Assembly: GCA_905178155.1 (NCBI GenBank)
Contig: CAJINV010000003.1
Location: forward strand, 3,715,600 to 3,779,599
Length of the DNA stretch: 64,000 bases
Direction: 5' to 3'
Origin: Amoebophrya sp. A120
Taxonomy: Eukaryota > Protista > Dinoflagellata
The notes beneath the pieces are model-generated. The model was not told where the DNA came from and did no database searches. It saw only the letters and a list, made by a program, of their open reading frames with translations. Of this stretch, positions 153 through 64,000 are shown piece by piece; position 1 is the first letter of the stretch, and each line of letters begins with the position of its first letter. The position numbers and the translations under genes were made by a program.

Positions 153-3100
153 ACTGCAGGGGTGCGTTCAAAGCTTCAAAGTTTTCTGAGGAACCCGCGA
201 CGAGGTCCACCACGTCGAGTTTCCAGCGAATCCGTACAAAATCGCAGTATTTCCTCGTGCGCCCCTTTTCGTAGTTCTGCCAGGCACCCACCGGGTAGAA
301 CTTCTCGGTGGGACGAGAGTAGGGCTGAATGCAGGCAAGCGTTATCCCGGTGGCGAGACCGAAGGAAGGCGATTTCTGCTCGTACAGGAAGCGTCCGGGG
401 GAGAGGTCGTGTACTTGGAGCACATAGCTTCCCACGGGACCGCGGACATCATCTCTGGCAAACGGACGCAAGGCAATGACGCGCAACGAGGCCAGGTCGT
501 ATCAAATGTAAAAATGTCTGGGTCTGGAAGAATGCAACTTGTGATGCTGCGTCTGCATTATCCAAAAATCTGTATTGCATGAACAGCAAAAGAGGTCTGA
601 TTTTGGCCACGGCGAGAGGGGATTTCTCATGCGGCATAGGCATCAGAAAGCCCTCACAAGATCTGTGATGGTAGGGCATGCATCGCAGACATCAGGAGTC
701 ATGCAAAATGTGCATGACAAACCTTGCATCCTTCCAGACCCAGACATTTTTGCATTTGATAGGTCGACCGTGTTCGCCAGATTCCGAAGTTGCTTTTCGA
801 GCACACCAGGTTGCTCCTGCTTCTGCTCGTCATCTTCATTTTTACCGATCGCGGGGCTAAATGGACGCCCGTCCTCCACGGAGTTTTCGTCCTCACCCTC
901 ATTTATTCCGGAGCTTGATCCTCCGGGTCGGCGAAGGCCTTGCACCCTGCCAGCGGCATTCGCTGCCCAGTCCGGCAGGAGGTTCAACTTGAAGTGCTTC
1001 AGCCCAACTCGCACAGGAATCTTCAGCACTGGCGGAACACTGCGAATCACGCTGTTCTCGACACTGGGAACCAGTTCGAACCCCGCGGAAACGGAGGCGG
1101 GATTCCTTTTCGTTCGGTCGACTGACGGCTCGAACAGGCGCGCAAGTTGGAACATGCGCGGCTGGTGCAGGGCGGTGAACACGAATTGCGAAAACTCTCT
1201 TGTTGCGCACTTCGCAAGCTTTTCGTCCGGCCCAATCAACAACATCACAAGCGGAAAAAGCTTTGCCGGGACATTCAGAAAGTGCGCCCAGTCCGGGGTC
1301 ACTTGCGCGAGGTTGGTATTTGCTCCCAGTAGAGGACCCTGCCGAATTCTGGTGTTCTGCTGCTTTTTCACGTCGATCGCGCCACGATATACCGCAACGA
1401 GGTACTCCTTGTACAACTGACGCGCGATATCTTCCGCACTGGACTCTTTCATTAATTCAATCTGTTCCGCGGAATGCGCCTTGTGGACCGCCAGCACGCC
1501 CGCGCCGTCTGGAATTCGCGAAGACGATGATGTCTGGCTCAGCCGCCTCGCGGCCGGCCAAAAGTCGGGATCCACTTTGCCCATCTTCGCTTTAGCATCC
1601 TCCAGCCCTTTGTCCAAGCGATTCAAATCCAGGGTTCCTGCTCCGAGGGTGTGAGCAGCGCGGAGCTTTTGCAAACGTTCGGAGCTCTCTGCGGTGATCC
1701 CAGCCGAGTCTCGCAGGGAGGTGAGGTAGGATGTCACTGCTTTGTCCTTGACGCGACGGAGACGGACGGCACGGCCCACCGCACGCAACACCACGGAATG
1801 GTCATTGTCCGAGTCGCATATCCTTCCCGCGGCGGTCAGCTCGGCGACCAGAAACAAACCGGCATCCCAGACTTCGCCCACAGAGGTCGCGTTCCACCAC
1901 GTGTTGGAGATTTGCGCGGAGAACACGTCCGCGAAATTCACAACGGCCTGCCTGTGTAAATCTTGATACATAGCTTGCAAGACGGTTAGGGCGGACCGGA
2001 TGGTCTTTGCCAGCGCGTCCCGGGCGGGGCACCTGTCCCCGTGCACGTTCACGTCGCAGGAAGCTGCAATCGCTTGCAATGATCGCCAGTCCGCGGTCTC
2101 ATGCAACGTCTCGAGAAGAGCTTTCGTGCGCCGGAGCGCTCGCAGCTGGGCTCGAAAATCCCGGTGGAGAAAGAATGTGCCCGGCACATCCACGAGGGCG
2201 TGCGCAGAGAGCAGGCGAACGTTGCGGCAGCTGTAGGCATCCTTCAACCCGTTTCTACCCAAGTCGAAGCACGTCCAGTGTTTCGGCGTGCACGAGAGGT
2301 CGGCCCGGTACTGGCAGAACACCTCGGTTTGTGCATTTTTCACCAAGCCGCAGGAGCCCAATGCTGCTTTGGCTACTGCTTTGGACGGCGAGACGACATC
2401 GTCGGGAACGGTGCACACGGGGAACGACGCAGCGCTCCTAGACGCCCAGTACCGGGCCAGCGACGAAGCGCGCCCGGGACTCGCCGGCCCGAGGGCGTGG
2501 TGGCGGTCGCCTTCGGCGCTGCTCAGCCCAACGCTGACCGGAACACTTTGCCGCCACGACAACGACTGTAGCACTGGCGAGAAGAGGTACGGCAGGGCGA
2601 CGCGGGAAGCTTGCTCCTCGTCCTGACTGGCGGGAAGAACGACGCGCACACCGGTGACGATCATGCCAACAAAATGCAAGTGACAGAGCAGACCATTGGC
2701 GACACGAGGGGAGCTTGTATCTGCCACCTCGTCGAGCGGAGGATTCCACAGCGTGCGCAGCACTAGAGGGCAAATATCGAGCGCCACGTCTCCGCGAGTT
2801 CGCCCCACGTTGGTCAGATCTGTAACCGAGCTGGCGACGGCACGAAGATGATCCTGCTCCGGCTTGGAGATGAAACGAAGCATCCCTGGCAGCTTCCAAG
2901 TAAGCAGCCGATACGCGGCCGGCCCGGCCGCGCAGTTCACAAACGCGAACTGCCGTGCTGCCGCCGCGTTGTTTGGCGGGAAACTCTGGGCGCTCCCGAG
3001 ATCAAGTGCCGCGTCCTGCTGGAACCCGCGCTCCAGCGAGCCGAAATCGTCCACGTACATCAAGGCTCGCGTAATCTGCCACAGCGCATACCTCCGCCGT

Positions 3101-3894
3101 ATCAGCAGGAGGACGGGCACGTCAACCTTCAGCGGTGCTCCACGGTGTGCTTCTTCTGGATTAAGTCCGTTGCGCAACTCCTTCATGATCCGCGCCACCA
3201 CCGACGGATACAGGTTGAAGACCCTGGCGAAGGCCAGCGGGTTCAACAGTGCCCGTCGTTTGTCCGCCTGCGAGTTCTTGAGTAGACGGCTCCAGGCGTG
3301 AAGGGTTTGGCGCAGGTAGTTCTCAGCGGCCTCGAAACGCTTCGCCGCGGTGGTTTCGATCTCGCAGTCCCCCACGGAAATAGCGCCCGATTCCCACAGG
3401 CGATCTGCATCACCCCAGACGCCGTTCTCGACAAGAAGACTCGCGAGAAATGAACGCCGGGTGAGCGATGCTACTCCGCCGCCACCGGTAGAGCCTTTCA
3501 CTATGCCCATTTTCGCATCCGACTGGTTGGTCGAGGAATCTGCAACACCACTTGTCCCGAGCAGTTCGCGCTGCACGAAGCTGGTGGAACTGGAATCCCA
3601 ATCCAGCACTGCGTCGTTCACTGAATTAACGCCACTTAGAGAAGAACCACGTGCAGTCGCTTCTCTAATTTGCACTACTTGATTTGGGGGCGCCGGACTC
3701 CAGTCATCTTGCTCATCATCATAGTGCAGCTGCCCGGGACGATCTTCATCCTCACCATCAGCAACCGCCCCGAGGAAATCTGCGTCCGCCCCAAGTTCTT
3801 GGCTAACATAGCTACTGGCGAAGACGAAAGGCGAGGTGGTCGCACTGGCCACCCAAAGTGCCAGGAGCCGTTGATAATCTTGCCTGCATATCAT
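153..3894 (-). CDS. Large hypothetical protein (>1100 aa), 3' end runs off the window; exons ~762-3894 and 153-499
   Basis: ORF 643..3903 (first ATG at 3894) joins ORF 115..486 in frame after removing element 500-761 plus one GGTCG (..NTVDL-ASLRVIALRPF..). No domain recognised. Confidence 0.75.
500..761. mobile_element. Introner family A, copy A2 (262 bp)
   Basis: ~31-bp TIRs TATCAAATGTAAAAATGTCTGGGTCTGGAAG / CTTCCAGACCCAGACATTTTTGCATTTGATA. TSD GGTCG at 495-499 and 762-766. Confidence 0.95.
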
Positions 3895-4439
3895 GGTCTC
3901 CAAGATTAACTACGCTTCGCAAATTTATTTGATCTTGCACTTTACTGATTTATTGTAAAGCTACAGGTGGACCTCATCATCCGCATTTGCTACGCGAAGT
4001 TCGATCTACAGATACAGTTGTCGTGGTGCCTCGGTCCTTCATCGACAAGCAACAAAAAAAACCGCTCACCTACATCATAGAATTGTTGATTTTCATTTCT
4101 GACATTCTTGCAGCCCTTCTTTTCGAAGATCATACGTGCAATTTTTCACTATACGCATGCAAATGATCCCTTTCGCTCCGATGACACGAATGCCCCCCAA
4201 AACGACGAGATAGACGATTTCAAATGATGCCCCATCAAGTAGACTTCGACACGAATAGTGGACGGACTACTCCTGACCGACAATAGCAAGAGCACGACGC
4301 ACACACTTTTATTCCCCAGCTCATGCTGCATTTTGAAAACAATAATGTGCTCTTCTAGTGGAGCGAGATTTCCGCATCTACAACTCTCTCGCATGACGAT
4401 CAAGCCAAAGAGCACCTGCATGATAAACGCACACGGGGA

Positions 4440-19124: not shown

Positions 19125-22100
19125 CTAAACGATAAAGGAAAGGAATTGCATAAAGCAGCACAAAGCATAGCAATACCGCTTCCCCTTCGTGTGTGGCTCC
19201 GTCCGGTGCTTCCGGTGCGGCTTGAAGCAAATCCACTTCTCGCGGCACGGTCTCAGGATGCACTTCGCGGGTGTCCCGTCCGGTCCCCGTATGGTTTCCA
19301 CAGCGTCCCCCACCATCTGCCCCTCGGTTCCGTACAGGATGACCCTGCCCGCGTTGCAGGTCGGATGCTTCGCGTACTCCAGATCGCAGCCGTAGTCGCC
19401 GAGGCAAACCTATCCTGAAGACAAACGCACCACCCCCAAATTCGGAGAGAACTTGCCATGCTTGATTTCTGCGCACGCGAGCTAGTTTTCCCTGCAGCGG
19501 GGCGACGCAAGCGCTCAGCTTTCCCTCACTGCAGCAGCCAACTTCTTGATGGCGCGCTAATCTGCGCAATAAATGCAAACAGCACGCCACATCTCTGATT
19601 TTTTTGTAGAAACAAAAAAAAGCACTAGCACTGCCAGCGCCACTATATCTGCGCGCACAGGCAACACATACGCAAGCGCCTCCGGTTCTGGGGCGGGGCG
19701 TTTTTTCACTTCCGTAGGAACTGGAAGTTCAAAGTCTGGGGATCGTTGCCCTCGTCGGCATGCCAAGAAGTGACATTATCCAACCCGGTATCATGAGGAA
19801 AGGCCCCACCTCCCCAATCTGCTGCTGCGACCTGTGTCGCAGCGTGCATTCATGTATCTATCCAAGTCATTTTGTGCATTTATGTCGAAAGCTACTCTCC
19901 GCAGTGCAGATGTCGCTGCCGTAGCCGGCAGAGAAAAGGCAAGAGGAATCGCTATACAAGACGCATCAAAGCTATCGGGCCCCCCGATTAAGCCTACTAG
20001 ACAGAGTATGGGGAGGGAGGATTATTCTAGTTCATAGCCAAAGCCGCCCGCACTGAAGTAGATTGCTTCGCCGAGCACTCCCCTAGCGGTCGCGTCCTGC
20101 GCCAACATGCAGCACTGTCGCCACAACTCGCGGACCCACGGGCACTTCAGCTGCTCCTCAAAATCCTCCGCGGGCGTCACCTCCTGCTTGCTGCGCGCCA
20201 GCTCAGCCAGCCCTCCCTTCACGTACCCAAACCGCTTCCAATCCGCATACTGGGAGGAAACGTTCGCCCGGCTGCTCCGCGGCAGGCTTCGCTTCTTCAA
20301 ATGCGCCAGAAGTGTGGCGAAGGTTGGCGTCTCCGGCTGTTCGAAATCTACCACTTCGTAAACCGCCTCTGCGTCGGGTATCAAGGTGAAAACAAGTGCT
20401 GCCCCTACCCCCGAGAACAAAAAAAGTAGTTAGCTCTGTGCAAAAGAAATCCCGCCTTCATGTATTTGTGAACAGAAACACCGCATGACAGACAAATAAC
20501 AGACTGACTTAGAAGGCATCTCTGATAAACGCTCCTGACTGCTGATGTAATTCCCCAACTGAAAGAGCGGAATCGCAAGGATATCCAAAAAGTTTCCCAG
20601 GAGAGGGCCACACTTTTCACCTGCATACTGTACAGCGGTGCCTCTCGGGGGGCTGCCGCCCTTCTGCGCGGGAAGCGGCTGGCTGCGCCGCTGGCGGCGA
20701 CGTCGCGGGTTCTGGCGTCGTAGTGCTGCAGGACCTTGCTCTTCTGCTCCTCCGTCAGTTCGTCCCAGACCTTCTTCTTGAAGTCCGAACAGGACACATT
20801 ATTATTTGTTCCGGCCTATCCACTGCAAATATGTCTGGGTCTGGAAGATTACGAGCCTTGTTGTGCAGGTTCCTCATGACCCATGAAGTCTAGAATGCAG
20901 GACCTAGCGTGACAGGTTATCCCGCATGAGAAAGTCTCTCCGCTTGGTCGAAAGTGGGCAGCTTGTGGCAGTCATGCAACACAGATATTTCCACGGTCCA
21001 GATTTAGCACAACAAGCTGCATGCTTCCAGATCCGGACACTTTTGCACTCGATACCACGACAACCGCCTTTGTCCCGTCCTGAAAAGCACAGCTGCCTTT
21101 GGTGTAGGTTTTGAAGACTTCCATGTGCAGGTAGTACTTGTTCTCCTTAAAGTCCGTAGAGTCGCTGTCGCCCTGCTTCCCACACTGCGCCGATCCTCCC
21201 TGTCCCACCCGCGCTCGCCCTTCGTACACTTTATTTCCGAAGGAGTGCACCATGCAGATTGCGATCCCGTCGTCGTTCCCCCCGAAGTTCTTCCCGTCCT
21301 TGGAGCTCCCCTGCACGATCACGATGTCGCCCTTCTCCAGCCGAAACTCCTGCCAGAAATTCTTCGCCCGCTTCTTCTGGTGGTCCACGGAGTCCTTGTT
21401 CGCCGCGCAGAAGTGCAGCGGAGTCGGCAGCTTCTTCAGCTCCTGCAGCATGCATTCCGCCTGGTGGTCGGATATCCCGTCGCGGTCGAATTTCTTGAAC
21501 AGCACCTCGGGCAATTCGTCCAGCAGTTCGTCTGTGGAGCCATTTGGGTCCGAGATGGGGATAGGGGTCCACCCGACCGCCGATTTGACCCGCTTGCGTC
21601 CTTCGGGGTCAACAACCCAGTCCGCCACTAAAATTGGCTTGGCTGCGTCGTCCGGTGTTTTTTCCCTAAAAGCGACTTCATGACTATGACAGTGCACAAC
21701 TCCCCCTCCCCCTCAGTTGTATAGCATGAACGGCAAAACGAGCATCCGCAAGAATGCCGGTTTTGCATGACAAATTTCCACTGTTCTATTAGGGCTAGCA
21801 GAACTTGCCATTCAAACAGTGCCAAGAGGCACAGCCTGGATTTGGGATTTATAGCATGAACTGCATTACAAGCATCAGCGAGATTGCCCGTTCTGCATGA
21901 CAAATTTCCACTCGAGTGTAGTGCTATCTGGGCTACCAGAACTTGGCATGCAACCAGTGCCAAGAGGCACAGCCTGGAACTGGATTTAAGATTTTGCATA
22001 ACAAATGAGGGGGAGGGGGAGTTGTGCACTCTCGTAATGATTCTTTCGAATCATTCGCACTTTTTCCCAGTCTTCCATCTTTTGCGTAGTTGCTTTTGTC

Positions 22101-41874: not shown

Positions 41875-44800
41875 CTAATCCCCTTGGGAGTCGTCAATGT
41901 AGTGCAGCGTGTAGAGAATTATGCAGCGCCAGAGCTTGATGCAAAACTTTTGCGTCTCGTCGTCGAGAAATTTGTCCAGCTCCGCCAGCATGTCGTCGGT
42001 CGTCATTTTTTGCGTCTTCACCTTCTGGACCACCGAGTAAATGTAGTCAATCACAGACGCCTCCTCTTTGTCGTACAGCTCTTTCACCTTCTTCGTGATC
42101 CACGGCTTGACCTGTGAGAATAAAATGAACAGATTACACCAACTGCATTTCGACTTTAGTATAGGAGTGGGACTCATTTCATCTACTTCCTTTCCAAAAA
42201 AAAATGAAGACTACAACAGGTCGGCCGAGCCAATCAAGTCCTCGTCGCTAAAGCAGTGCGCTAAAGTAGTGCGCTAAAGTAGTGCGCTAAAGTAGTGCGC
42301 TAAAGCAGTGCGCTAAAGCAGTGCGCGAAAGTGCGCCAAAGTAGTGCGCTAAAGTAGTGCGCTAAAGCAGCGTGCTAAAGTAGTGCGCTAAAGCAGCGCG
42401 CTAAAGCAGTGCGCTAAAGCAGTGCGCTAAAGCAGTGCGCTAAAGCAGTACTAAAGCCGTGCTACCAGCATGCGAGGCAACCTAGCTGCGAAGCACTCTG
42501 GCTAGCCAGAGCGAAGCACTTTGGCCGCAAGCGTCGAAAGCAATTTATGCGTAAATAGACCTATACCTTTAACTCCAGTAATTCGTTTTTGTCGATGATT
42601 CCCCAATTGATCGGGTAGTCAAAGACTGCGTCGCCCTCGGGAATGGTTTGGATCAAAGCCTGCAGATCTTTCTGCGGGCGCGCCCTCGACGGTTCATCCC
42701 GATCGCCCCGTCTATTGCTGCGCTCCCGGCTGTGCCGTCGCCGTCCCCTCCGATCGCCACTCGGCGACCGCCGCCGGCGCCGCAGGTCGCTTGTGCCCGT
42801 CAACCGTTCGACGGCTTCTCGCGTTTTGCGCTCCTCGTCTGCTTTCAGTCGCTGTTCCAACTCCAGCTGTTCCTTCCGAATCGCTTCCTTCTCCCGCTCG
42901 GCGTTCTCCTGTCGTTCCTTTTCCAGGTCCTCCTCGTCCTCGTCGAGTTCGCGTTTCATGTGCTGCTTCATTCGGGCTTCCAGCCCGGGGAAGGCCCGTC
43001 GCCGCGACCGCCGGGGCCGGGGGGCGCGAGCCAGGTACAGGTCCGTACGAACCTGGTCCTTTGCGAGCAGCTCCGCTCGACGATCCGACATCCGCATGTC
43101 CGCTGTAGTTGATTTTGGGTGTGGTTTTTTCTCATTTCCGGGGCTTGTTGCTTTGTTCAAGTTCATCTTGCTGAATCTAGGCACTCAATAACAATTGTAC
43201 AAAGACGTGTGTCCGCAGTACTTGTAAAGAATCAAGCAGTGATTTATACCGTCAGCTATTCTGGTGACCGTTCCCGAGGACGACTCCGTGACCTGGAGCC
43301 GCTTCAGCTCGTCGCGGAATTCCTGGAGCTTTTCTTGCTCGCGTCTCTCGAAATTTCGAACAGCGGTGTCGTCTTCCCGACGTTGCCGTCGCTCCTCTTC
43401 CGCGATGCGTTCCTCGCGGTCTCGCTCCTGGAAACAGTTGTCGATCAGAAGGGTGAGCAGGAGTACTAGACCCCATTTCTTATTCTAGAGAACACCCGGC
43501 ATGTAGTCTGCTGGGATTGGAAAAGCACAAGCAGCTCACGACAAAAAAATAAAACCACGATCATGTTGATGTCCTGTATACGCATGCAAGGTCTTTTCTT
43601 GCGAAGAAGTATCGGTAGTGTAGTACCTTCCGGTGTGGCCTTCGGTTTTCGGGTTTTTTCACGGGGTCTCGTTCCTCCGGCTCTTTCTCCTTGTCTTTCT
43701 TAGCCGCTTCGTCCCGCTTCCCCTTTGACTCGGCCAGTTCCTTTCTGATGCGGGCCAGGTCGTCCGCTCTCCTCTTCTCGTCCTCCAACTTGCGCTTACG
43801 CTCCTCGAGGGCGCGCTCCTGCTCCTGAATCTTGCGCTCCCGCTCCTTCCGCTGCTCGGGAGTGACCGTCTGCAAAAATTGCTCGTACTCCCGGTCTATC
43901 AACTGCAAATATGTCTGGGTCTGGGAGATTGCGAGATTTGTCATGCTAGTCTGGCATGACTCGAGAATCTGTGTTGCATAGGCACAAAAAGGCCCTCTTG
44001 CCTGTCATGCAAAAACGCAGTTTGCCATGCGGAATACGTAAGACATGGCTGCCAAAGAATTTGTCATGCGTAGCTGCGTATTGCAGTGCGTCTATCATTA
44101 ACTTTTAGCATTACAAGTTTCCAGACCTAGACATTTTTGCATTTGATACGGTCTGCGGCCGCAATATTCTCTAGTAATGCCGTGCGAACCGTGTCCATTT
44201 CGCTCGCCAGCAAAGAGTCCACCTCGTCGTCAGCCATTGGAATCATCTCGATATCTGACCCATCGCTTCCCTCCTGAGTTTGATGTTTTTGGGTAAAGTT
44301 GAGGCTAGTTAGTAGTAAAACACGATAGGGACGGCAATTATCAGCGGTGAACATTCGTTTCCCTGATATCTGGATACTTTACGCCGTAGTACGGGAGTTT
44401 TCGAACAAAACTCTATGAATGAAGCTGAGTTGTACCTCTAGCCCCGAACAACCAAAGCGGATATTTTTCAAAAAAACCTTCTGTACCTTGACCCGGGTCT
44501 TTTGGCAGAGGTTGGGGTTGGCTTCCCGGAATTTTGTGCGCTCCTCCGCTCGGAACTCTTCCAAATCCGCCTGCATCTCGGCGGAGACTTTGAGCATCAA
44601 AGACTGGTTCAAAATTTTCATGGCGGGCAGCCCTTCTTTTTCGACGTCCCCGTTGAGAAAGGTCATCACCGCGTTCACCTCCCGTATGTTGCCGAAGTGG
44701 CAAAACGCGAACTTTGCGGGCACGTTCGTGACCGGGTCGGTCTGCCGGTCCCATTTCACGATCCGGCCGCAGCAGCCGAAGATGGCCCGGAGGGACTCGT

Positions 44801-50168: not shown

Positions 50169-53100
50169 ATGATTCCCATTGAAATGCAGTGCGGCGTTCT
50201 CGCAGCGGAGAGTGGGAAAGAAGAAATTTCGGCCGCGCGGGCTGATCCGCCCACGCTCCCGATGGCGGCCGCCGCCCCCAATGATCATTTTTCGCAAAAT
50301 AGTAGCAAAGAGGTGCAACTGTTATCTGCGGCCGAAACTGACGAAGGTACGACCCCGCCCTCCCTTGGTAGCTGCTCCGCAGAGACCGAAGGACATGTGC
50401 GCGGGCTTAGCGGGAACTTTCCTGGTGTTGAGCATTCAGGCCCGGGAGGAACAGGAGCATCAAACGCGTCTGCCGGTTCCGCTGCGGAATCAGTCCCTAC
50501 TCCCGCCAAACTCGCCGAACCACACCCGGGGCCGCCTCCGGCGGTAGCTCAGCAGCCGACTCAACCACAACAACCTCTCCTGCAGCTGGGCGCGCCCACT
50601 GCCGGCCAGCAACAGCCATCACTCCTGCACCTCCTGAACCCGCCTCCGGGCCAGCAACCGCCCCTTGGCCCGCCGACCGGAACTACACCTGGATTAATCG
50701 GACAGCAGCTTCCCGCACCAGTTGGACTGCCTGCCGGTACCCAGCAGCAAGTCGCAGCCCCAAATAGTACTAACCTCAGCAGCATCAATCCAGCAAACCT
50801 TTTCAACCAGCCCGGGCAACAACAGCAGCAGCCTCCGCTGCTGGGTTTCATCGCGCAACAACAGCAGCCCCAACTTCCACCTCAACTTGCACCGGCGCCA
50901 CTCGTTAACTTTCTCAACGGGGCCCCCAGTCCGCTACAACAGCCGGGCGGCCCGCCCAGCGCCGGCCCGCCGGGTGCAGCAGCAGTCACCGCGGCGGGGG
51001 TTTTGCCACCACAACTCCTGGGACAGCAACAAAACGCAGTAGTGCCAGCACCTATTGGCTCTTCTAGCGGGGCGGGACCACCTCCGCAACAAGCCGTTCC
51101 GAACGGGGTCCACCTCGTTGGGCAACAGCAACTAGTACCAGGAGCGCCGACCCTTCCCGCGCCAGGGAGCAACGGTGTAGTTGAGCAGACGGCCAGTACT
51201 AACGGAGTAGTTGTAGCTGCCCCCGTTGTTCCGCCAATGCAGAACCGAAACACGGATTATGGTATGTTCGCAGGAGGAGCGAATGCAGAGCAACCTTCGC
51301 GCGGAGGACAGGGAGGAGCAGGCGGTGGGGGAACCGGCGGTGGCGGTGGAGGGGGTGGTAGCGGAACCGGCGGTGGAAATAGCGGCTATTACAGCCAACC
51401 CAACACACCAGGCGGCTCCGCCAACAAAGGAGGTATAGTGAGCACTTTTGTCGTGTTGGTCAGCATTTATTTTTCCTAGAGAAATCTTGGCAACGAGGAC
51501 GGGGAATAAAGCGTTACACCATCGTGCATCTGTTTTCTCATCAACAGCGCTTTTTATGAGAAATGACATTGACAGTAGTGGAAAGTAGAGAACTGAAGAA
51601 GTAGTACTTCACAAACTAACAGGGCGATCAAAGGACGGGAAGGATGGCAAAGGTAAGGGCAAGGACAAGAACAGGGGAAAGAACAACAAGGGCAAAAACT
51701 GGGAAGACCGAGGGCAGCAGGTAAGTATGAAGGTTGATCGTATTCAACTTTGGTGAAAAAGAACTAAAAGTGCTTTTCACATAAGAAAAACATTCTCGTC
51801 GTCGAAGACTACTTAGTCTGATGTCACTTGTCCTATCACACATACAGCAATCACAAGGCAGCTGGTCGGGAGAACACAACTGGTCCCCGAGCGATGCGGA
51901 GCCACAACACCAGCAACAGCAGCAGCACCACCAGCAGCAACAGCAGAACCAATACTATCACGCACAGAATCAGTATAGTAGTTATCAAAACTGGAACCAC
52001 GATCCGCAGCAAAACATGCGGGGGAGCAATGTTTCGCATTCCAGCAACACGGTATAGAATTTTCCATGGTTTTTGTCAACCCTTGATCAAAGAACACAGC
52101 AGCCGGAGAAGGACAGCCTGCGTGCTTGTGACTTCACAGGAGTCGACCATTTTTTCCTTGATTTTGAAGTAAAGTAGTTTGCAAATACAAAACAGAGTTG
52201 GGAGGGCGGTGGCGGTAGTTGGGACACAGGCATGATGGCGCAGCAGCAGTGGGGCGGCTACGATGCGAACAACCGGTACGCATCCCCCGTCGACAGTAAT
52301 GCCGGACCCGGGTCCTACACGCCCGATGGAATGTGGGTGCCACCAGGATCATCTCTCCAAATGCCGTCGCCTGTTAGCAGTATTGCGTGTCAACTATTTG
52401 ATGTGTGTGTAATGACGTACTATTTCTTAAAATTCGCTTCCAGCATAAGTGAACAAAGACGCACCAGCTGCGGCGCGCAATAAATAAGACATTCCTACGA
52501 CAAAATAAACAGGCTTTAATCCAGCAGCGGCCGGTGACCTGAGGTGTCGTTATTACAGGAGAGTAAACGTCGGACCGTCACACACGCTCACCGCGGGCTG
52601 TTACCGCGGGCACGAGTGTCGTTTCGTCCACGATAATCCGGGAAGCGACGAGTCGTCAGTATTTTTATTGGCATAAGTTGCTCCTTGTTGACGACCTTCA
52701 ATGCCTCGTTTTTTTGCGCTTATGAAGAACCAACAGCAACAATTTTGTTTCCTTCCTGCTCGTGTTAACATCCACGCTAGTAAGCGGAAAATAACACAAA
52801 TATTAAACGTTTGAAGAAATAACGCTACTACAGGTATATGACCAGTTCATAAATAATCCGCTCGAGTTTGTGGCAAGCTGTAATTTACCCGCGAACAGTA
52901 TTAACGTTTTCGAGAATGACAACCAGCACCCAATCGGGGTGAAAAAGTTGTTCGAAAGTAAACTCGGCCCCGACGGAAAGCAGATCGTGACGGTAGACGA
53001 AACCGCCAAGAAGCCGCAGCCGAACAGAGTGAACTCCTCCGAATCAGGAACGGACGGTATCTGATTATGATTTTACATCGCAACGAAAATAAACATTTTC

Positions 53101-54862
53101 ATCACCCGTTCGGATCGGTCTCGGTGTCATCCATGCATGAATCAATTAAAAGAGTGGTGGTCACAAGAACTACAAAGCGGAACAAATAACTTTGAGTCGA
53201 CTCTCACGGAGGCTGGTTGCGCGTAGGCGACATCATGCCGGGGTTCGAAGCTACTTCTACAACGACACACTGTACAAACAGGTACAAAAACCACCGCGGA
53301 CGGCGAGCCCAAACCCGAAGAGCAGCGCGAGCTTCGCGTCGACGAGCGCGGGGTGATGATGTTTATGCAAAAACCCACGAACGCACCTAATATGATACCG
53401 GGATATCAACTGCAAATGCTGTGTCTGGGTCGGGGAGGCTGCAGAAGTTTGTCGTGCACCTTTTTCATACTTCATCAGCCCGGGAATTTGGGGCTTAGCA
53501 ACACAGAGTCGTGCCAGTTCTTTCTTATGCGTGTCGTGGATACAAATCGTCCTTGAATAAAATCAATAAACTTGACCGAAGGCGGGCATATTTTAATAGT
53601 CACGCAAGACCACGGATGTTTGCGTGAACCAGACAAAGGACAATCAGAAATTGCAACGCTCTGTCAGACTCAGACCCAGACATCATATTTCCAATGCATA
53701 CCCGACCTGGTAGAGCCATATCAATATTTGACTTTTTTCTTCGTATACTGTTACTCGATGTTGACAAATGTATAAAGCTGGTTCTTCATCGAGACCTTGC
53801 ATGTCAAGCCTCCAATGTTTTTGCAGGGCCTTCGCCTATGAATCAGATGCCGGGCGGTGGCATGATGGGGCCCCCCGGGGGCATGCAGCCACACCAAATG
53901 CAGCAACAGCCGATGAACACCAGTCCCTTCGCAGCACCCCAGCAGCAGCCGGGGCATAATATGATGAATCCCCTACTGGGCATGAACATGATGGCGAAGG
54001 GCGGGCCCAATCAGCATCCGCAGATGCAATTGCCACCGCAGATGCAGCCGGGCGGGCCGCAGATGCAGAACAACCCCGCGATGCTGGGGCTGAATCCTTT
54101 GGGAAACAATCCGAACCTGCTCCCGGGCGGGATGCCCGGGGGCGTCCTTCCGCAGCAGGGTGGACTACCGCCCGGAGCGGCAGGCAACAATCCGCTTCTC
54201 CAGATGCTGAACAATTCCGGAGGGGGAAATCAGCAGCCACTGCCGATGATGGGCAATCCCATGATGGCGGGCGGACCGCAGCCGCCAAGCCCAGGCATGC
54301 CGCAGCAGCAGCTCCAGCCGCAAGGACTTCTGCCACTGGGAGCAGGTCCCCAAGGCGCACAGCCCATGATGAACAACATGCAGGGACTGATGCCGATGAA
54401 GGGAAATGCGGCGGCCGCGCAGCCCCCGGGAAGTCCGAATCGCGGGCAGCAACAACATCCCGCGCAACTCATGCCACTACCCCCGCAACAACCCGGCGGG
54501 GGCGGACCCCTGCAGCAGCAGCCGGGTAGTAACACGCTGCAACCGCTTCCCATGAACAACAATAATCCGATTGCCAACTTGCTGCAGCAGGGGCAACAAC
54601 AAGGGCTCCAGCCGCCCCCGGTCCCCCCAACCGGTGGGACCCCGGGTCCGCAGCCCGGCCAAACCCCCGGAGGTACTTAGACTGTTTCTGAGCTTTCTTC
54701 TGAATGACCTGGGTTCTTTGACAACTGTTTGATGGTCTTCTCTTCGCCGCAAAAAATTCTAGAATCAAATATGATTCATTTTCAAGATTCGCGATTCGCA
54801 TCTGTTGTATAATATAAGGTGGAGGTGGACCTCCAAGCGGTGACAACAGGAAGGGCACGTGA
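50169..54862 (+). CDS. Pro/Gln/Gly-rich multi-exon protein with one CCCH zinc finger
   Basis: Low-complexity ORFs 50169..51479 and 53694..54680 plus small GT-AG exons. C-x17-C-x5-C-x3-H at 52545-52631. Last exon ends with TGA at 54860-54862. Start codon uncertain. Confidence 0.7.
53404..53700. mobile_element. Degenerate family-A-related introner, copy A9 (297 bp)
   Basis: TATCAACTGCAAATGCTGTGTCTGGGTC ... GACCCAGACATCATATTTCCAATGCATA. Flanks CGGGA/CCCGA (3 of 5). Removing the element plus 5 bp restores the frame (NMIPG-PG..). Confidence 0.75.
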
Positions 54863-56542: not shown

Positions 56543-59500
56543 ATGAACAATCGAAAGTCCTGGTCGGCGAAATGCGGTGGAGCACTCTGCGAGGCCGTGT
56601 CGTGCGAGATCTTGAAATTGGTGCTGCAGAGTGACCAGCAGCAGCGTGACGCGAGCGCGGCTGCGGGTGTTCCGACGGCGAGCAGCTGTCCCGCGGTCCT
56701 GCGGTGTGTGGTGCGGCACTTTCCGGACTTCGTCTCGACGTGGCTGGGCCGCCCGAATTCCGGCGTGCGGGTCGCAGCCAAGGAGGCGTCAGCGGAAGGA
56801 ATCCAGCACTTCTGCCGGTACGTGTGCACGACGCTGGTGCTGCAGCCCGATGTGCTACTGAATGTCTGGATCTTGCTCCAAAGGTACTGCGCGCAGCGGG
56901 CGCTTTTGCTCTCCTCCGGCGGCGCGAGGAGCCCGGGCGGGGGCGGGACAGCAAAGCCGAGTACTTCGGCGCGGTATCATGGAAAGACCGACAATATTCA
57001 AGGAAAACATCATGATGACCGCACGAATAAAATACCAAACAGCAGTGCTGCTCTCGCCTTGGGGAAAGAGTCCTGGCCACTGCTGCTAATCGCCGCTGTG
57101 ATGAGCGCGCTACCCGCGTACGAGGACCACGGACCCTCGCTGTACGAGTACAGTGTCGCGGTCAAGGAGTGGCCCGGGTTTTCAGAGCACTATGGGTTGC
57201 GTCTGAAGAAAAAAAGCACGAGCACTTGCTCCGCTGGAGCTGCGCCGCCTTCGTTACTTCACAAACAGGACCAAGTACGACGACAACCTCCCGCGTGCTT
57301 TGGGTGCGAGACCGCAGAGGCCGTGTTGGTACGGGTCTTCTTCAACCACCCGGCGCTGTTGCAACGGAAGCTGTTTAGCCGCAAGAACCTGTTGCACGCG
57401 CAACTGCATTTTCTCGAGGTGGTTCAGTATCGCGTGTTCGTTCACCCCGACGTCTGGACGACGCAGTATGAAAAGTTGCTCCAGGTTGTACAGACTGGCG
57501 ACAAAATGCAAAACAAAGACAGCATCGACCTTTTACCTGAGCATGATGACAAGCTGTCGACCTTCTCCGATGAAGATCGCGAAAACGACAACAACTACGA
57601 TGTACGGCTCGCACCTGTTGGGAGTCCTCTGCGCAGGAGCGTGCAGATAAAACCCCCAGAACCCGCGGAATTGCGCGAAACGCGCTTAGAAATGTGGGCA
57701 ACGTCTCGGGAGGATGACAGCAACTGCGTCCTCGGCGTAAACACTTGTGAGGAAAATAGGCACAGAGCGAATGCTGGCTCGGGTCGTTTGCAGACAACGC
57801 GCTGGAGCCACGAGCACGCCGGTAGGGTCTCCGCCGGAACTGCACTCGCGTCGCCGCAGAGCGGATACGACTTGTTGCGGTCAACATCTGGGAATAGAGG
57901 AAGGCGGAGCACAAAACAGGGAGAAATTTTCGCTGACGGCGCCAACGTAGAAGTACCAAACGGATTGATAGCAGGACAACTTTCCCGCCCGGAGGACATG
58001 TTTGTGACTGCTCACGATGTTGAAGACACCGACGTGGTGCCACCAGCGGTTGTTGCAGATCATGACCTACACCAGCAGACAGCAGCACTGTGGAACCGAG
58101 AGAGCTATGAACTGCAAAAGTATCGTACTAGTGTAAATTGCAATACAAATTTCCTTAGCATGAGAAATGGAATTTGTCATGCGGATTTGCCTTGATAAAA
58201 CGATTTGTAATGCAAGACTTGCATCCATACGAGTACGATACTTTTGCAATTGATAGGAGCCGCGGTTTTCTGGATCCCGACATTTTCTCCTCCAGCGGAG
58301 GAGACATCAGCGACGACGACGCTATCGTGAGGAAAAATCCCCCTTCCCCATATCAACAAGGTATATTTTTGGAAATGTGTGATGCTGATTTGTGGTCACA
58401 AACCGTGTCTGTCTTGCAAGAAGGCAACTGCGCAGACAGCCGCCGCATTGTGCAGGCGGTTTGCCATGCTGTTGGGCCTACAGCGCGGAGGTTTATCATG
58501 CTAAGCGCCTAGGCCAAAACCTCTCTACTCACGCTTCGTATGGGCCTGCAAAGCCCTCCAGCAAGACAGCTCGGATTTGTGTACAGAAGTCCAGCATCAG
58601 AAGTTTTGTTTTGATATGGGGAGGGGGGATTTTTCCTCACAATAGACGCGAATGGCTGTTTGGCAGGTCCTCCCATTCACAACCAGCGTCCCGCATCTCC
58701 AGTGTCTTCGCGGTGTCGTCGTCGCGCGTCAGCTACGTCGAGGGCGGGTGTCGGGGCGGCGGGCCGCCTTTCGAGTGGTTTGAGAAAAGTCAAGAGTACG
58801 ACCAGCGGAGCAGGTGGACGAGGGCTCATCAAACCGTCTCCCAGTTCGCCATCGCAGAAAATACTTGTGCCGGAGCAAGATCGCGGCTCAACATTGCTGG
58901 GCCCCCTTGCAGGAGCTGCGCGTCTGTCTAGCGGGATGAAAACAACTTCTGGGGTATTGTGAGGAAAAATCCCCCCTCCCCATATTCAGAACGTAGCCTT
59001 CTGAAAATTTGTGATGCAGATTTGTGATCCCAAATCCTCTTTGTCTTGCAAGGATGCAAATCCAGAGAGTCCGCCGCGTTGTAGAGGCGATTTGTAATGC
59101 TGTAAGACCTACGGGGCAGTTGTCTGCCATGCTAAGCGCCTACACCAGAAGACCCCTACCCAGGCTTAGCATCTTCGTGCAGTGTTCTACTGCAAGACAG
59201 ATCCAATTTGTGTACACAAATCCCGCACCACAGATTTTCGTTTCGATATGGGGAGGGGGGATTTTTGATGTTGATATGGGGCGAGAAACACTCATCGGAG
59301 TTCCACCACCGCCCTCGCGATCGAGAGCAACAACTTGAATCTATCCTGTGTAAAAACGTCCCCACACCAGAGTCAAGATGGGGATTTTGCAACACAAACC
59401 TGGAAGTTTTGGGACTCATGCATCACAAGTTCCAGTCCGTAGTGTAGTGCAGGTCAGCAATGGCAAACGCATCAGAAATCCATCTGCTTATCCTGGTTAC

Positions 59501-60329
59501 AGCATTACAAATGCCAAAACACGACTACAAATTCCTCTCATGGGGATGCCCATTACAAATGTTCCTGTCATTGCAAATCTGCATGACAACTCTGGGGTGG
59601 GGACGTTTTTACAAATGATAGAATCGGGTCAGCGACCAAGTTCCCAGCCTTCCCAGTGCCTCGCGCTTCTTTCGGCGGAGTCGGAGCGACCACAACTGCA
59701 GTTACAACAGCGCCGCGTCCTTGCAGCTGGCGCGGCAGCGCAGCGGAAAAGTGCATCCGCTGCTCGCGGCCAAGGAGGGCAGCCGCGAGATGTCCCAACG
59801 CAGTCTGGTGTCTTTGTGGCGCGAGAAAGCCTCCATGCCCATGTTTGTAAACGAGGACCCCGCGGAGGAGCCGGAAGGTGTGCTGTCGCAGCAGCGACTC
59901 CAGCAAATCCGGCAATCGCTAGAGGACCTGGACCGCGCGCTCGGCCGCAAGAATTCCCATTCCGTGGACGAAATGAGCGTTCGGCAGAGTGAGGAACTCT
60001 CTCGGCGGCTGTTCGAAAACAGTTGCGCGACCGGCGGTGGCGGGGCTTGCATTACTACATCAAAGGGAACCAAGACAAATCATACCACACTCGCGGAGTG
60101 CCGCACCACCGCCGGCACGATGAGCTACCGGGCCAGTTTGTTGGCAAATAGTACGACTTCCGAAAGTTGTAGTAGTACTCTGCGGGAATCAACAGCGCTG
60201 CCGATGTTCTTTTCGGCAAACAACAACTTCATAGCATCTCGGAGCGCGTCGAATTTCATGCTGGTCGGATCGAAGGTCTCATTGGGTACCGAAAACGCAG
60301 ACCCTGAGACGGACGAAACGGAGCACTAG
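56543..60329 (+). CDS. Divergent cyclin-box protein (cyclin Y/P/Pho80-like N-terminal half, disordered C-terminus), ~897 aa after removing four introners
   Basis: IQHFCRYVCTTLVLQPDVLLNVWILLQRY..WPLLLIAAVMSA..NLLHAQLHFLEVVQYRVFVHP resembles a cyclin N domain. ORFs 56543, 58174, 58660 and 59721 join into one frame (3787-1093=2694 nt). Confidence 0.7.
58106..58255. mobile_element. Introner family E (150 bp)
   Basis: TATGAACTGCAAAAGTATCGTACT / AGTACGATACTTTTGCAATTGATA. TSD AGAGC/GGAGC (4 of 5). Confidence 0.9.
58323..58644. mobile_element. Introner family D, copy D2 (322 bp)
   Basis: TATCGTGAGGAAAAATCCCCCTTCCCCATATCAA / TTGATATGGGGAGGGGGGATTTTTCCTCACAATA. TSD GACGC. Confidence 0.95.
58955..59276. 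mobile_element. Introner family D, copy D3 (322 bp)
   Basis: TATTGTGAGGAAAAATCCCCCCTCCCCATAT / ATATGGGGAGGGGGGATTTTTGATGTTGATA. TSD TGGGG. Confidence 0.94.
59342..59620. mobile_element. Introner family F, copy F2 (279 bp)
   Basis: TATCCTGTGTAAAAACGTCCCCACACCAGAGT / ACTCTGGGGTGGGGACGTTTTTACAAATGATA. TSD GAATC. Confidence 0.95.
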
Positions 60330-62093: not shown

Positions 62094-62435
62094 TGATACC
62101 CTTTTGTCACAGACGGATACTAGTAATCAAATCCGTTTTTTTTCACCCGCACACGTGAAGATGAGTAAAAATGTAAAAGCGAAACAGAAATAAAAACGCA
62201 CTCGAGCTGCAAAGTGGCTGTCCCATAACAGCTCCTACCGGAAGCTGCTTCGGTTGATCCGTGATGGTGTTCAGCTTCTCCGTAGTTTTGTTTTAGTTGT
62301 CCGTCGTGAATTTACGACGAAGACAAACCGCGCCATCTCAAGTACAAATGTTGTCTGTACCAGATATCGAGCTCGTCACAATGTGGAGCCCTCGTATGTA
62401 GAGGCGATTTTGTTTTGATCTTCGATCGAGGAATC

Positions 62436-64000
62436 ATGTCAACTATTCCGGGAGACGGACGGCAGCATCAGCATGATCTTGCAGGCGACCCTCCAACTCA
62501 CATCTCTGCTTTCAGCCTGGTTGTGCTGTTCGCGCTGTGGGTGTTTGCGCACGCATGGGGTTGCTTATTCCGTTACGTGATGAAGACACCCCCACTGCTG
62601 GGCTACCTCCTGGGGGGTATTTGTTTCCGCAACGTGGGCGGTGCCGCACTGCATTTCGCACAGGCGAAGGTGAGGCAGTCACTAATACATGACAACAGCA
62701 GGACAACGACCAAACCTGGCGGCCCCCCAGCGGCCGGAGATGCGGAACAAGCGAGCCAAAACCTCACTTTGATTCCCGCAGATATTTCGTCCCTCGTGCG
62801 CACGCTCGGGCTCGCCACTATTCTCATGATTGCGGGATGCGAGATCGACTACCAGAAAATCCGGCGGATGGGCGGCATGTGTCTGCGGCTGACCGTGCTT
62901 CCCGGCGTGAGCGAGGCCTTTGCCGTGGCTCTCGTATCCATGTATGTGTTTGGGTTTTCCCTCGCCTGGGGCCTCGTGCTGGGCTTTATCCTGGGCGCCG
63001 TGTCCCCTGCCGTGGTGTGCGGCGGTATGTTTGCGCTGCAAAAGCGCGGGTACGGTGTCGCGAAGGCGATTCCCTCTCTGGTCGTGTGCGCCGTATCAAA
63101 TGCAAAAATTTCTGGGTCTGGAAGATTGCGAGATTTGTTATGCTGATCTGGCATGGCTCTTGAATCTGTATTGCGTGGCCACAAACAACCTCTCTCGCCT
63201 GTCATGCAAAAACGCAGTTTCTCATGCGGAATACGCAGCACCGAAGCACGAAGCAACTTGTCATGCTTGGCGGCGCATTACAGTGCATTTGTATATTGAC
63301 TGACTTGCATCACAAGTTTCCAGACCCAGACATTTTTGCATTTCATACGCCGCGAGCTTGGACGACGTGGTTGCCATTTATCAAATGCAAAAATGTCTGG
63401 GTCTGCAAGAATGCAACTTGTGATGCTGCATTTGGATGTCTAAAAGATTTGTGTTGCATGAGCAGCAAAAGGAGTCTCACTTTTGCTACGCGGACAGGGC
63501 ATTTGTCATGCGGAATAGGCATCAAGAATCCCTGAAAAAACCTGTGATGCTAGGGCATGCATCACAGACATCATGGCTCATGCAAACCGTGCGTGGCATG
63601 TCTCAAAGTCAAAACCCTCCAGACCCAGACATTTTTGCATTTTATACCATTTCCGGGTTCACCACCTCGCTCGGCGTCGCCATGAGTGACATCATGCCCG
63701 CGGACGAGAGAAACCTTTTGCGGACCCTGCTGGGGCTGCCGCACGTACCTGCGCATCCCAGTTCGCACTTCTACGCGATGCTGCACGGGCCAACCAATTT
63801 GCTGCTCGGCGCGGTGCTGGGCGTCACTTTAGGTGCGGCGTTCGCGAAGCTTTGCCAAACGGACGCAGCGACGGCATCTTCATCATCATCCCGAGGGGGT
63901 CATGCAACCTCTAGTTCAACTAGCTCCTTTTGGGGTAGCGGTTCTTTCTTCGGCCGCAAGCTCCTGGCTGCCCACGCGCTCGCCCGCCGAAACGAACTGC
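62436..64000 (+). CDS. Na+/H+ antiporter, SLC9B/NHA-type (partial, runs off the window)
   Basis: PPLLGYLLGG, RLTVLPGVSEA, LGFILGAVSPAVV and GYGVAKAIPSLV. The conserved AASLDDVVAISGF motif appears only after removing elements A7 and A8. Confidence 0.9.
63094..63347. mobile_element. Introner family A, copy A7 (254 bp)
   Basis: Family A TIRs. TSD CGCCG at 63089-63093 and 63348-63352. Confidence 0.95.
63379..63646. mobile_element. Introner family A, copy A8 (268 bp)
   Basis: Family A TIRs. TSD CCATT at 63374-63378 and 63647-63651. Confidence 0.95.

Follow-up and report, generated by a model that had tools for sequence, protein, structure and literature searches.

Coding bias of Amoebophrya introners and candidate excision scars in non-coding DNA

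Why should short inverted-repeat elements lie inside reading frames, rather than in the intergenic DNA and canonical introns around them? The question is raised by a 64,000-nt stretch of DNA (the window) holding 21 elements of the form TAT...ATA, with terminal inverted repeats (TIRs) and 5-nt target-site duplications (TSDs), every one of them within a reading frame. An earlier reading of the window, made from its letters alone (the sequence-only reading), had described these elements without recognising them as published Amoebophrya introners.

Introners and their removal from RNA

A blind scan of the window returned 13 elements with perfect TSDs, against 0, 0 and 0 in three shuffles, and a refined blind scan returned 17, against 0, 1, 0, 0 and 0. 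Three degenerate copies (19789-20036, 20379-20627 and 53404-53700) and one copy clipped by the window start (1-152) raise the count to 21; the sequence-only reading had counted 19. The 13 target 5-mers that it named are exactly those of the 13 perfect-TSD elements, and its statement that target sites lack a consensus was borne out when the 5-bp targets were read along the coding strand. In the 17 scanned copies, 24-29 of the 30 end bases are complementary, and the TSD is perfect in 13 and matches at four of five positions in three more. Left ends begin with TAT in 18/18 copies, 14 of which carry the full motif (TAT, seven variable bases, at least three A), and a shared internal motif occurs 69 times within elements versus 8 times outside them in the window. 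As a rule, elements are 150-350 nt long.

For comparison we used at least 136 loci from one other assembly, found via the TIR of one family, 80 of them with long flanks and none overlapping the window (the listed loci). Here the TSD is exactly 5 bp in 274/356 copies and 6 bp in none, and the 371 copies listed fall into 66 single-linkage families. Elements are used in both orientations (35 versus 30). They are the non-canonical introns of the A120 introner type described by Farhat et al. 2021 (PMC7789003).

That the elements are removed as introns, as had been proposed from sequence, was supported at 12 of them. At nine sites the element plus 5 nt is absent from RNA-like contigs (from runs tentatively labelled RNA, all of one sample), which also splice canonical introns, and three further excisions (25256, 29018 and 29341) were confirmed by orthologous proteins. 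Among the contig matches listed there was no joint for 25256, 29018, 29341, 31777, 32098, 34892, 38172, 63094 or 63379, some of which have low cover, and matches of the raw-read runs X9 and X10 were confined to short stretches within elements, with loose ends. The choline-transporter exon of the window matches, at 99% identity, a protein that bears the name Amoebophrya sp. A120, the A25 hit being 87% identical. The introners of the window are as follows.

1..152, minus strand: family-1 introner (plus-strand 3' part), clipped by the window start; 71-76% match to copies at 43897 and 63094, coding frame downstream
500..761, minus strand: introner, TSD GGTCG, in minus-strand CDS; blind scan and frame
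19789..20036, minus strand: old degenerate introner, 5' splice site CT; found by eye, frame continuous; contig restarts at 20038, 1 nt beyond the TIR (one side only)
20379..20627, minus strand: old introner; joint 20374/20629, skip 254, unambiguous, runs X3 and X4; sets the splice register at 1 nt ahead of the TIR and 4 nt beyond it
20817..21054, minus strand: introner, diverged TSD; joint 20811/21055, skip 243 = 238 + 5
21685..22036, minus strand: introner; joint 21679/22037, skip 357 = 352 + 5
25256..25473, minus strand: introner in the choline-transporter-like CDS, close to its 3' end; peptide across the junction identical to P0001 and uninterrupted in P0002-P0004
29018..29285, minus strand: introner, TSD CCTTT, choline-transporter-like CDS; peptide across the junction identical to P0001 and uninterrupted in P0003 and P0004
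29341..29593, minus strand: introner of a different family, TSD TCGTC, 55 nt from 29018..29285; junction peptide identical to the P0001 N terminus
31777..32038, minus strand: introner, TSD TGTTC; blind scan and frame
32098..33004, minus strand: introner, 907 nt, TSD TGGAG; blind scan, alignment and frame; ~630 nt absent from the relative at 59342
34892..35212, minus strand: introner, TSD CTCCG; blind scan and frame
38172..38477, minus strand: introner, TSD TGTTG; blind scan and frame
43897..44148, minus strand: introner, TSD CGGTC; joint 43891/44149, skip 257 = 252 + 5, 4/4 runs
53404..53700, plus strand: old introner, then 5-nt micro-exon (53705-53709), then canonical intron; joint 53403/53826 with CCT between, 4/4 runs
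58106..58255, plus strand: introner, 150 nt; X6 record 14 contig arithmetic (426 nt between 58101 and 59621, the length predicted for removal of four elements, each with 5 nt)
58323..58644, plus strand: introner, TSD GACGC; X6 record 14 contig arithmetic, blind scan and frame
58955..59276, plus strand: introner, TSD TGGGG; joint 58949/59277, skip 327, 3/4 runs
59342..59620, plus strand: introner, TSD GAATC; joint 59336/59621, skip 284, 4/4 runs
63094..63347, plus strand: introner, TSD CGCCG, Na/H-exchanger-like CDS; blind scan and frame, no joint among matches listed
63379..63646, plus strand: introner, TSD CCATT, 31 nt from 63094..63347; blind scan and frame, no joint among matches listed

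Splicing removes exactly one copy's worth of the 5-nt target duplication, in a fixed 1+4 register that narrows the splicing mechanism. In this register 72/230 of the copies listed start with GT and 17/230 end with AG, about as target composition predicts, unlike the canonical-site introners of the Micromonas and Aureococcus type, with their GT-AG or GC-AG borders. Old-TSD mismatches showed no clear drift towards GT or AG (52 cases). When one old intron was folded its ends paired, but the overall fold was not exceptional (z -1.39).

Bias towards coding DNA

Coding sequence makes up 55.7% of the 57,720 non-element bases of the window and holds 0.68 elements per kb, versus 0 in non-coding DNA. 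The probability of an all-coding set is 4.6e-6 for the 21 elements and 4.8e-5 for the 17 found blind, both values being optimistic given the clustering of elements. A coding-frame hidden Markov model (HMM) was self-trained on the other loci, starting from a model trained on the window; on 21 coding and 27 non-coding segments of the window it reached 96% sensitivity with 4% false positives. It called 20 of the 21 junctions coding, with one and the same frame to either side; at the 21st (53404) the frame is kept via a 5-nt micro-exon in 4/4 runs. The earlier statement that all elements lie in coding sequence, and none in intergenic DNA or canonical introns, thus holds in the window (21/21). A search by homology to the scanned copies detected no remnants in its intergenic DNA or canonical introns; this search missed the real old copies at 19789 and 20379, and equally old intergenic copies could escape it.

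Window stretches at ~49.45-50.17, 54.9-55.67 and 56.28-56.54 kb are transcribed UTR. Parts of what the sequence-only reading had cited as intergenic are therefore not so, but they are free of elements as it had said.

Could elements have been noticed only where a reading frame breaks? Three of the 21 window copies were found via RNA or by eye, two of them having been missed by the homology search. However, frame-blind scans gave 17/17 coding copies in the window, and 53/63 of the pattern-found copies elsewhere were called coding by the window-trained model. This largely refutes such an artefact for young copies, and we regard it as very improbable.

In the other assembly, 265-280/302 listed copies lie in frame-continuous coding DNA, against a background of 53-55%. 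About 7 listed copies, judged by reading their flanks, lie outside CDS, so that confinement to coding DNA is not absolute. Element density in the listed loci is 2.26 per kb in CDS versus 0.20 per kb in non-coding DNA, an 11-fold difference.

A transposase that prefers GC-rich DNA, exons being GC-rich, might produce this pattern, and Gozashti et al. 2022 (PMC9860276) prefer this explanation across species. Within CDS, GC over 20 nt is indeed slightly higher at insertion sites (0.586 vs 0.566, p 0.002). At matched GC (0.5-0.6 in 100 nt), however, the listed loci hold 2.52 elements per kb in coding versus 0.30 per kb in non-coding DNA, and coding DNA is 8- to 13-fold denser in elements across the well-filled GC classes. 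Adding coding status to GC improves the log-likelihood by 60-78 units, whereas adding GC to coding status improves it by 2-5. Control for GC, which the sequence-only reading had suggested for a genome scan, leaves the exonic excess in place in the other assembly (odds ratio ~9 for coding status after GC), and GC targeting, which that reading had entertained, is not supported. Subject to the accuracy of the HMM labels, GC preference is refuted as the sole cause, and we give it almost no weight.

Scars, spacing and possible retention in exons

Non-coding DNA carries an excess of short scars of the form x-abcde-S-abcde-y, in which S is the complement of x or y. Counted with filters against confounding trinucleotide repeats and compared with Markov nulls, rule-obeying +6 scars number 185, where 24 are expected, across 97 kb of non-coding sequence in the listed loci, and 16 vs 5 in 22 kb in the window; the figures for CDS are 71 vs 54 in 121 kb (listed loci) and 14 vs 13 in 29 kb (window). 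No tandem-period excess was seen at 5 or at 7-12. The spacer complements the base lying outside the 5-mer rather than the one beside the cut (52% vs 44% for the adjacent bases), and the classic P-nucleotide rule, by which it would complement the adjacent base, mostly failed. Three window examples are these.

24937..24947, no strand: 5-1-5 scar GAAAT-C-GAAAT in non-coding DNA, within X3 and X4 contigs that match without difference
51564..51574, no strand: 5-1-5 scar within an RNA-confirmed canonical intron; contigs and scar scan
53115..53125, no strand: 5-1-5 scar within an RNA-confirmed canonical intron; contigs and scar scan

Because the X3 and X4 contigs agree fully, the first is not an assembly error of the window. 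Inside listed element copies there are 28 private +6 insertions, 22 with the 5-1-5 form and 20 with the complement rule, from which it follows that scars arise as insertions; other private changes are 6 at +5, 1 at +7 and 2 deletions of 6.

Scar density is 0.14-0.43 per kb in CDS and 1.65-2.48 per kb in non-coding DNA of the listed loci, and 0.02-0.12 and 0.51-0.92 per kb in the window. This 6- to 12-fold depletion in CDS matches the 11-fold enrichment of elements, and the summed density of elements and scars is about the same in coding as in non-coding DNA, both in the listed loci and in the window, data sets whose densities differ threefold. One-mismatch scars are also in excess (844 vs ~668), so perfect scars undercount and the balance of totals is only rough.

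We put at about even odds the reading that introners, spliced out with one TSD copy, owe their coding confinement to retention, non-coding copies having been excised to leave scars. On this account, introners would insert genome-wide by cut-and-paste, a putative transposase acting in trans on the TAT...ATA ends and internal GCAT[CG]ACA motifs. Non-coding copies would be excised again, each leaving a 6-nt scar formed through a hairpin on the flanking DNA. In exons a spliced element would be nearly harmless, and a 6-nt scar, adding two codons, would mostly be purged, so that exonic copies would be lost about ten times more slowly. In favour of retention, the duplicated core is as long as the elements' TSD, and no other intact inverted-repeat family was found in ~430 kb. 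In-frame +3 scars of this form exceed expectation within CDS as well (~5 per kb, vs 10 per kb in non-coding DNA) and frame-shifting +4 scars do not, which indicates a process not limited to one compartment. Complement-bearing footprints are, in the part of the literature available, a mark of hairpin excision of Ac/Ds (PMC5873905).

Several observations stand against retention. The commonest scar class is +3 (2-bp core; ~10 per kb), 66/81 private +3 insertions obey the rule, and the search turned up no element whose TSD would match, so that all scars could stem from a general mutational process. A spacer complementary to the outside base is what plain hAT chemistry would yield from a 7-bp TSD; from a 5-bp TSD it would yield +4 scars, and these are weak overall (0.71 per kb in the listed loci, none detectable in the window), with 13/18 private +4 insertions obeying the rule. 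Scar density does not follow element density across 56 listed loci (rho -0.01) and shows no trend with distance from an element. Non-coding copies in the listed loci are not visibly younger. No transposase was found, nor an autonomous partner with the same ends in the window or loci; the family-1 TIR had 0 matches in viral and prokaryote collections, and no filled/empty allele pair was seen, the listed loci having no overlap with the window. In the available text of Farhat et al. 2021 (PMC7789003), no transposase is reported in A120 and copy-paste is favoured.

The chief competitor is that insertion aims at coding exons, guided by chromatin or by a mark coupled to transcription or splicing, and further prefers sites beside resident elements, the scars then stemming from an unrelated repair or transposon process. 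In the listed loci, pairs in the same coding segment are rare at <30 nt (5 vs 32 expected) and frequent at 30-105 nt (115 vs 72 expected), either deviation being reached in 0/2000 re-placements. Since close pairs are mostly of unrelated families (7/94 similar), they are not local duplications. Scars show neither the <30-nt exclusion nor the 30-105-nt excess, and no nested introner was seen in 7 long copies or by scan. Pair distances gave no clear long-range periodicity; the far bins of a first neighbour-density table, censored by locus length, were not used. Targeting also accords with the gene enrichment in 161/175 genomes and predicted linker bias of Gozashti et al. 2022. Yet it leaves unexplained the scar/element balance, with a TSD-length core, in two data sets; the <30-nt gap may come from selection on splicing; and the UTR exons of the window, transcribed too, hold no element, although they span too few kb for significance. 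We judge targeting possible though rather unlikely. The sequence-only reading, which had proposed exon or chromatin targeting, may still be right in view of the spacing rule, but it overlooked retention and the excision-like scars of non-coding DNA.

Uniform insertion with non-coding copies lost by selection, deletion or decay, unlinked to scars, appears improbable. Exonic copies must keep their ends for splicing and would be preserved, and a few decayed fragments do lie in non-coding DNA (4-6/35 non-coding on both sides, listed loci). These fragments are nevertheless far too few, deletions in copies are rarer than insertions, and the non-coding share is ~5-12% in each nearest-neighbour identity class of >2 copies, with no rise towards 45% for near-perfect TIRs.

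A fuller form of the retention reading, to which we give somewhat less than even odds, is an exon trap: introners would land everywhere and be excised via flank hairpins with an unusual 5-nt loop, non-coding DNA would record ~100,000 visits (2 per kb extrapolated to the genome), and intron gain would stem from asymmetry of loss, not from targeting, with the +3 scars as the record of a second, now invisible element or of a mutational signature not described before.

Whether introners in genes reflect aim or survival is usually answered by GC or linker DNA. GC fails here, and retention can be tested directly by way of a countable non-coding scar. Should the scars be introner footprints, they would overturn the published non-cut-and-paste view of these elements, give a handle on the enzyme's chemistry and provide a ratchet for the gain of tens of thousands of introns. 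Even if unrelated to introners, a genome-wide complement-rule insertion signature, with ~12 events in each kb of non-coding DNA, deserves description.

Comparison with known systems

[quoted passage not shown] Transib/RAG-like transposons share the 5-bp TSD, but have CAC termini and P-nucleotides complementary to the adjacent base; the termini here are TAT, and the adjacent-base rule is mainly absent. The hAT superfamily makes 8-bp TSDs, unlike the 5-bp TSDs of these elements. By plain hAT chemistry a +6 scar needs a 7-bp TSD and a 5-bp TSD would give a +4 scar, a class that is weak but present (listed loci, private insertions). The available account of hAT (Ac/Ds) footprints (PMC5873905) likewise describes short duplications that carry a complementary base at the joint and are put down to donor-flank hairpins.

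Euglenid nonconventional introns, as far as the available texts describe them (PMC12501133; PMC11282704), are likewise non-GT-AG, with ends that pair at a constant distance from the splice sites and repeats resembling TSDs, but have CAG...CTG rather than TAT...ATA ends and other spacers, in an unrelated lineage. In Polarella, the available text (bioRxiv 2020.10.14.339549) derives splice sites from fixed target motifs, whereas here any target works.

From the A120 introners in the available text of Farhat et al. 2021 (PMC7789003) the elements themselves do not differ: TIRs starting TAT, direct repeats of 3-5 nt that overlap the border of exon and intron (5 bp in the example of the Fig. S19 legend), ~240 nt and many families. 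That text holds no coding/non-coding count, 1+4 register or spacing rule, and 'excision' and 'footprint' occur 0 times in the main and supplement text. Introners generally (Gozashti et al. 2022, PMC9860276; 2025, PMC12130899) are TIR/TSD transposons that make introns and are usable in both orientations. Their gene enrichment is already known, and those reports read it as insertion preference, mostly for GC or linker DNA, whereas here GC is not the cause. What is new here is the scars and the balance between coding and non-coding DNA, which, unlike other introner reports, would provide a trace of loss from non-coding DNA.

Coding bias in the window and in a wider sample

Scanning the window for inverted repeats bordered on each side by a direct repeat recovered elements that start with TAT, end with ATA, are mostly 150-350 nt long and carry a 5-nt duplication of the target. 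The duplication was perfect in 13 elements, as against none in each of three shuffles, and these have the same thirteen target 5-mers that had been listed in the sequence-only reading. A refined scan, in which coding status was ignored, returned 17 elements (0, 1, 0, 0 and 0 in shuffled sequence). The window total comes to 21 with one copy truncated by the window start and three old copies beyond the scan:

19789-20036, old introner copy
20379-20627, old introner copy
53404-53700, old introner copy

Coding status was assigned using a seven-state hidden Markov model that took its seed from the window, was then trained again on other loci, and labelled as coding 96% of hand-picked coding bases and 4% of hand-picked non-coding bases in the window. 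Once the element and 5 nt were removed, 20 of the 21 junctions were coding, with one frame on both sides; the 21st, at 53404, is joined in frame in four of four sequencing runs via a 5-nt micro-exon (53705-53709) followed by a canonical intron. The claim that elements sit in coding sequence is therefore right for the window, with 21/21 junctions in frame. Coding sequence makes up 55.7% of non-element bases there, and the probabilities of an all-coding placement (4.6e-6 for 21 elements, 4.8e-5 for 17) are optimistic because elements are clustered. A homology search, which missed two real old copies, found no element remnants in window introns or intergenic DNA.

Other features of the window were recorded alongside the elements:

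4400-7650, introner-free satellite outside genes, built of 96-bp units that form a higher-order repeat of about 1.2-1.6 kb, lying between two minus-strand genes
7975-13692, P4-type ATPase with an open frame of 1905 codons, free of introns and introners; neighbouring genes hold several
32098-33004, 907-nt element in which a stretch of about 40 nt is duplicated; about 630 nt are absent from its relative at 59342, and a nested TAT...ATA element was ruled out as their source
42240-42470, 13-bp tandem repeat within an apparent canonical intron
46640-49000, strand switch where a long run of minus-strand genes meets a plus-strand block, with an AT-rich kilobase flanked by two GC-rich stretches; contig cover is zero in four runs at 47.2-48.5 kb

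The wider sample comprised at least 136 loci from one other assembly, found with the terminal inverted repeat (TIR) of one family (411 kb, merged to 366 kb). Here, frame continuity depended on removing exactly 5 extra nt: with the window-trained model it held at 277/337 junctions, compared with 121/337 for 4 nt, 98/337 for 6 nt and 110/339 for none. A refined catalogue held 312 copies in pieces of at least 1.5 kb, after masking of 35 fragments and of 30 copies cut by an edge. Of the 312, 302 had adequate flanks, and 265 or 280 of these, depending on the model, lay in frame-continuous coding sequence against a background of 53-55%; copies found by pattern only were coding in 53 of 63 cases. Both models called 19 copies non-coding. 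Judged from the flanks of 18 such cases in the first catalogue, about seven lie truly outside CDS, six of them in UTR-like sequence and one inside an intron. The strong bias thus stands, and 'all' is softened to about 90-97% because of these exceptions. The exceptions include the intronic element, which starts 14 nt into a GT intron (L043, 4517-4756), and a group of three in a UTR-like stretch upstream of an ATG, separated by 60 and 80 nt (L007, 2418-3264). Elsewhere, one introner has an 8-bp rather than 5-bp flanking duplication (L039, 3329-3608).

Base composition, suggested earlier as a cause, does not account for the bias: at a GC content of 0.5-0.6 the loci held 2.52 elements per kb in coding and 0.30 per kb in non-coding DNA, and the odds ratio for coding status after GC was about 9. 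The usual explanation of exon bias, GC, fails here. The absence of a target consensus was borne out.

Removal from RNA, splice register and spacing

RNA-like contigs were available from four runs of one sample (X3-X6), in which the RNA label is a guess and canonical introns are spliced. Element plus 5 nt is skipped in these contigs at 20379, 20817, 21685, 43897, 53404, 58955 and 59342, and one contig has exactly 426 nt between 58101 and 59621, as expected if 58106 and 58323 are also removed. P0001, an orthologous protein of the choline-transporter-like gene, has exactly the peptides predicted across the junctions at 25256, 29018 and 29341, and those at 25256 and 29018 are unbroken in orthologues.

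As old copies have diverged duplications, they fix the position of the cut. At 20379 the contig joint is unambiguous, the intron starting 1 nt before TAT and ending 4 nt after ATA; 19789, 20817, 53404 and 58106 each rule out some other registers, and all are compatible with this 1+4 register. The intron therefore begins N-T-A-T and ends with four arbitrary bases; in this register a GT start occurs in 72/230 copies and an AG end in 17/230. A single family was found in both orientations (35 and 30 copies). The paired ends may serve as a ruler, in which case any target would be spliced and the protein left unchanged. Most elements, including those at 500-761 and 58323-58644 of the window, also contain a GCAT[CG]ACA-like motif common to unrelated families, spaced 31-33 nt apart in the same orientation in 212/485 cases (three helical turns), which is possibly a binding site for a transposase or splicing factor.

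Within one coding segment, pairs less than 30 nt apart were rare (5 vs 32 expected) and pairs 30-105 nt apart were in excess (115 vs 72), neither deviation being matched by any of 2,000 random re-placements. Close pairs were mostly of unrelated families (similar in 7/94), and gaps in the window include 31, 55, 59, 65 and 67 nt. Either targeting to sites next to resident elements or selection acting on tiny exons could lie behind this spacing, though the 5-nt exon at 53705 is spliced correctly.

Scars in non-coding DNA

If elements landed everywhere and then left non-coding DNA, footprints would be expected there. A 5-mer repeated after one base was found 193 times in non-coding DNA of the loci (31 expected) and 19 times in that of the window (8 expected); Markov nulls concur, and neither an excess at periods 5 or 7-12 nor repeated flanks around these scars was seen. 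In 185/227 scars the spacer is complementary to a base that directly flanks the repeat. Scars following this rule (+6 scars) number 185 vs 24 expected in non-coding DNA of the loci and 16 vs 5 in the window, whereas the CDS counts are 71 vs 54 at the loci and 14 vs 13 for the window. Insertions private to one element copy, being missing from its three nearest relatives, are most often 3 nt long (n=81), with a second peak at 6 nt (n=28), as against 18 of 4 nt, six of 5 nt and one of 7 nt; the rule is obeyed by 66/81, 20/28 and 13/18 of those of 3, 6 and 4 nt (control fractions 0.15, 0.04 and 0.06). Since these lie inside element copies, the scars are derived insertions on known ancestral sequence. 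The scar at 24937 sits in contigs identical to the window there. A joint with complementary bases marks hairpin intermediates in Ac/Ds excision, according to passages of PMC5873905.

The chance that confinement to exons is an effect of retention seems to us about even. Introners would insert uniformly over the genome and be excised leaving a scar; in exons, selection would act against the scar and not against the spliced element. A flank hairpin with the 5-nt duplication as its loop would yield the observed spacer. Plain hAT geometry would give the same spacer from a 7-bp target, in which case the weaker, shorter-core +4 class would be the introner footprint and, being a frameshift, would trap elements even better. 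We favour retention because the totals roughly balance, elements plus +6 scars amounting at the loci to 2.4-2.7 per kb in CDS and 1.85-2.7 outside, and in the window, which differs from the loci threefold, to 0.7-0.8 and 0.5-0.9, because the ratios mirror each other, scars being 6- to 12-fold rarer and elements 11-fold commoner in CDS, and because the sole intact TIR elements seen in window and loci have 5-bp duplications.

Against retention, scar density is independent of element density (rho -0.01, 56 loci), scars track neither distance to elements nor the spacing rule, mismatched scars raise the non-coding total, non-coding copies are not younger, and neither a transposase nor an element/scar allele pair was seen in window or loci. 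In addition, a +3 class with a two-base core, of the form x-ab-S-ab-y with S complementary to x or y, is four times commoner than +6: the 97 kb of non-coding DNA at loci L001-L104 hold 2408 such scars where about 1400 are expected, and the window holds 480 against about 310. They also occur at about 5 per kb in CDS, repeats that break the rule are at chance level, and no element with a duplication matching this core was found in window or loci. Insertion aimed at coding exons is the rival reading, which we consider possible but rather doubtful.

Relation to published introners

For an exon of the window's choline-transporter-like gene, identity is 99% with a protein that bears the name Amoebophrya sp. 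A120 and 87% with another that bears the name A25. In the text of Farhat et al. 2021 (PMC7789003), A120 introner elements are non-canonical introns of about 240 nt with inverted repeats from TAT and direct repeats of 3-5 nt, present in 29,850 copies and 1,954 families. The window elements fit this description, with the full published inverted-repeat motif at 14/18 left ends. Of two further genomes, A25 carries TTA elements whose direct repeats have other lengths, and AT5 has canonical introns only.

The same text reports A120 to be without transposases and hence excludes general transposase-mediated mobilisation, while passages of Gozashti 2025 (PMC12130899) class some A120 introners as TIR DNA transposons. 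Neither 'excision' nor 'footprint' appears in the body of PMC7789003, PMC9860276 or PMC12130899 or in the supplement text of PMC7789003, and our searches of the open literature found nothing on introner excision footprints or on intron gain via such footprints of transposons; figures, PNAS supplements, subscription journals or theses could contain a compartment count for A120. The scars point to a testable alternative to the GC explanation that was not found in the literature searched.

Enrichment of introners in genes is itself a known trend, described in PMC9860276 for 161/175 genomes and tied there to GC, and the exon bias seen here is a strong case of it. The observation of this bias was right, and the elements that display it are the already described introners of A120.
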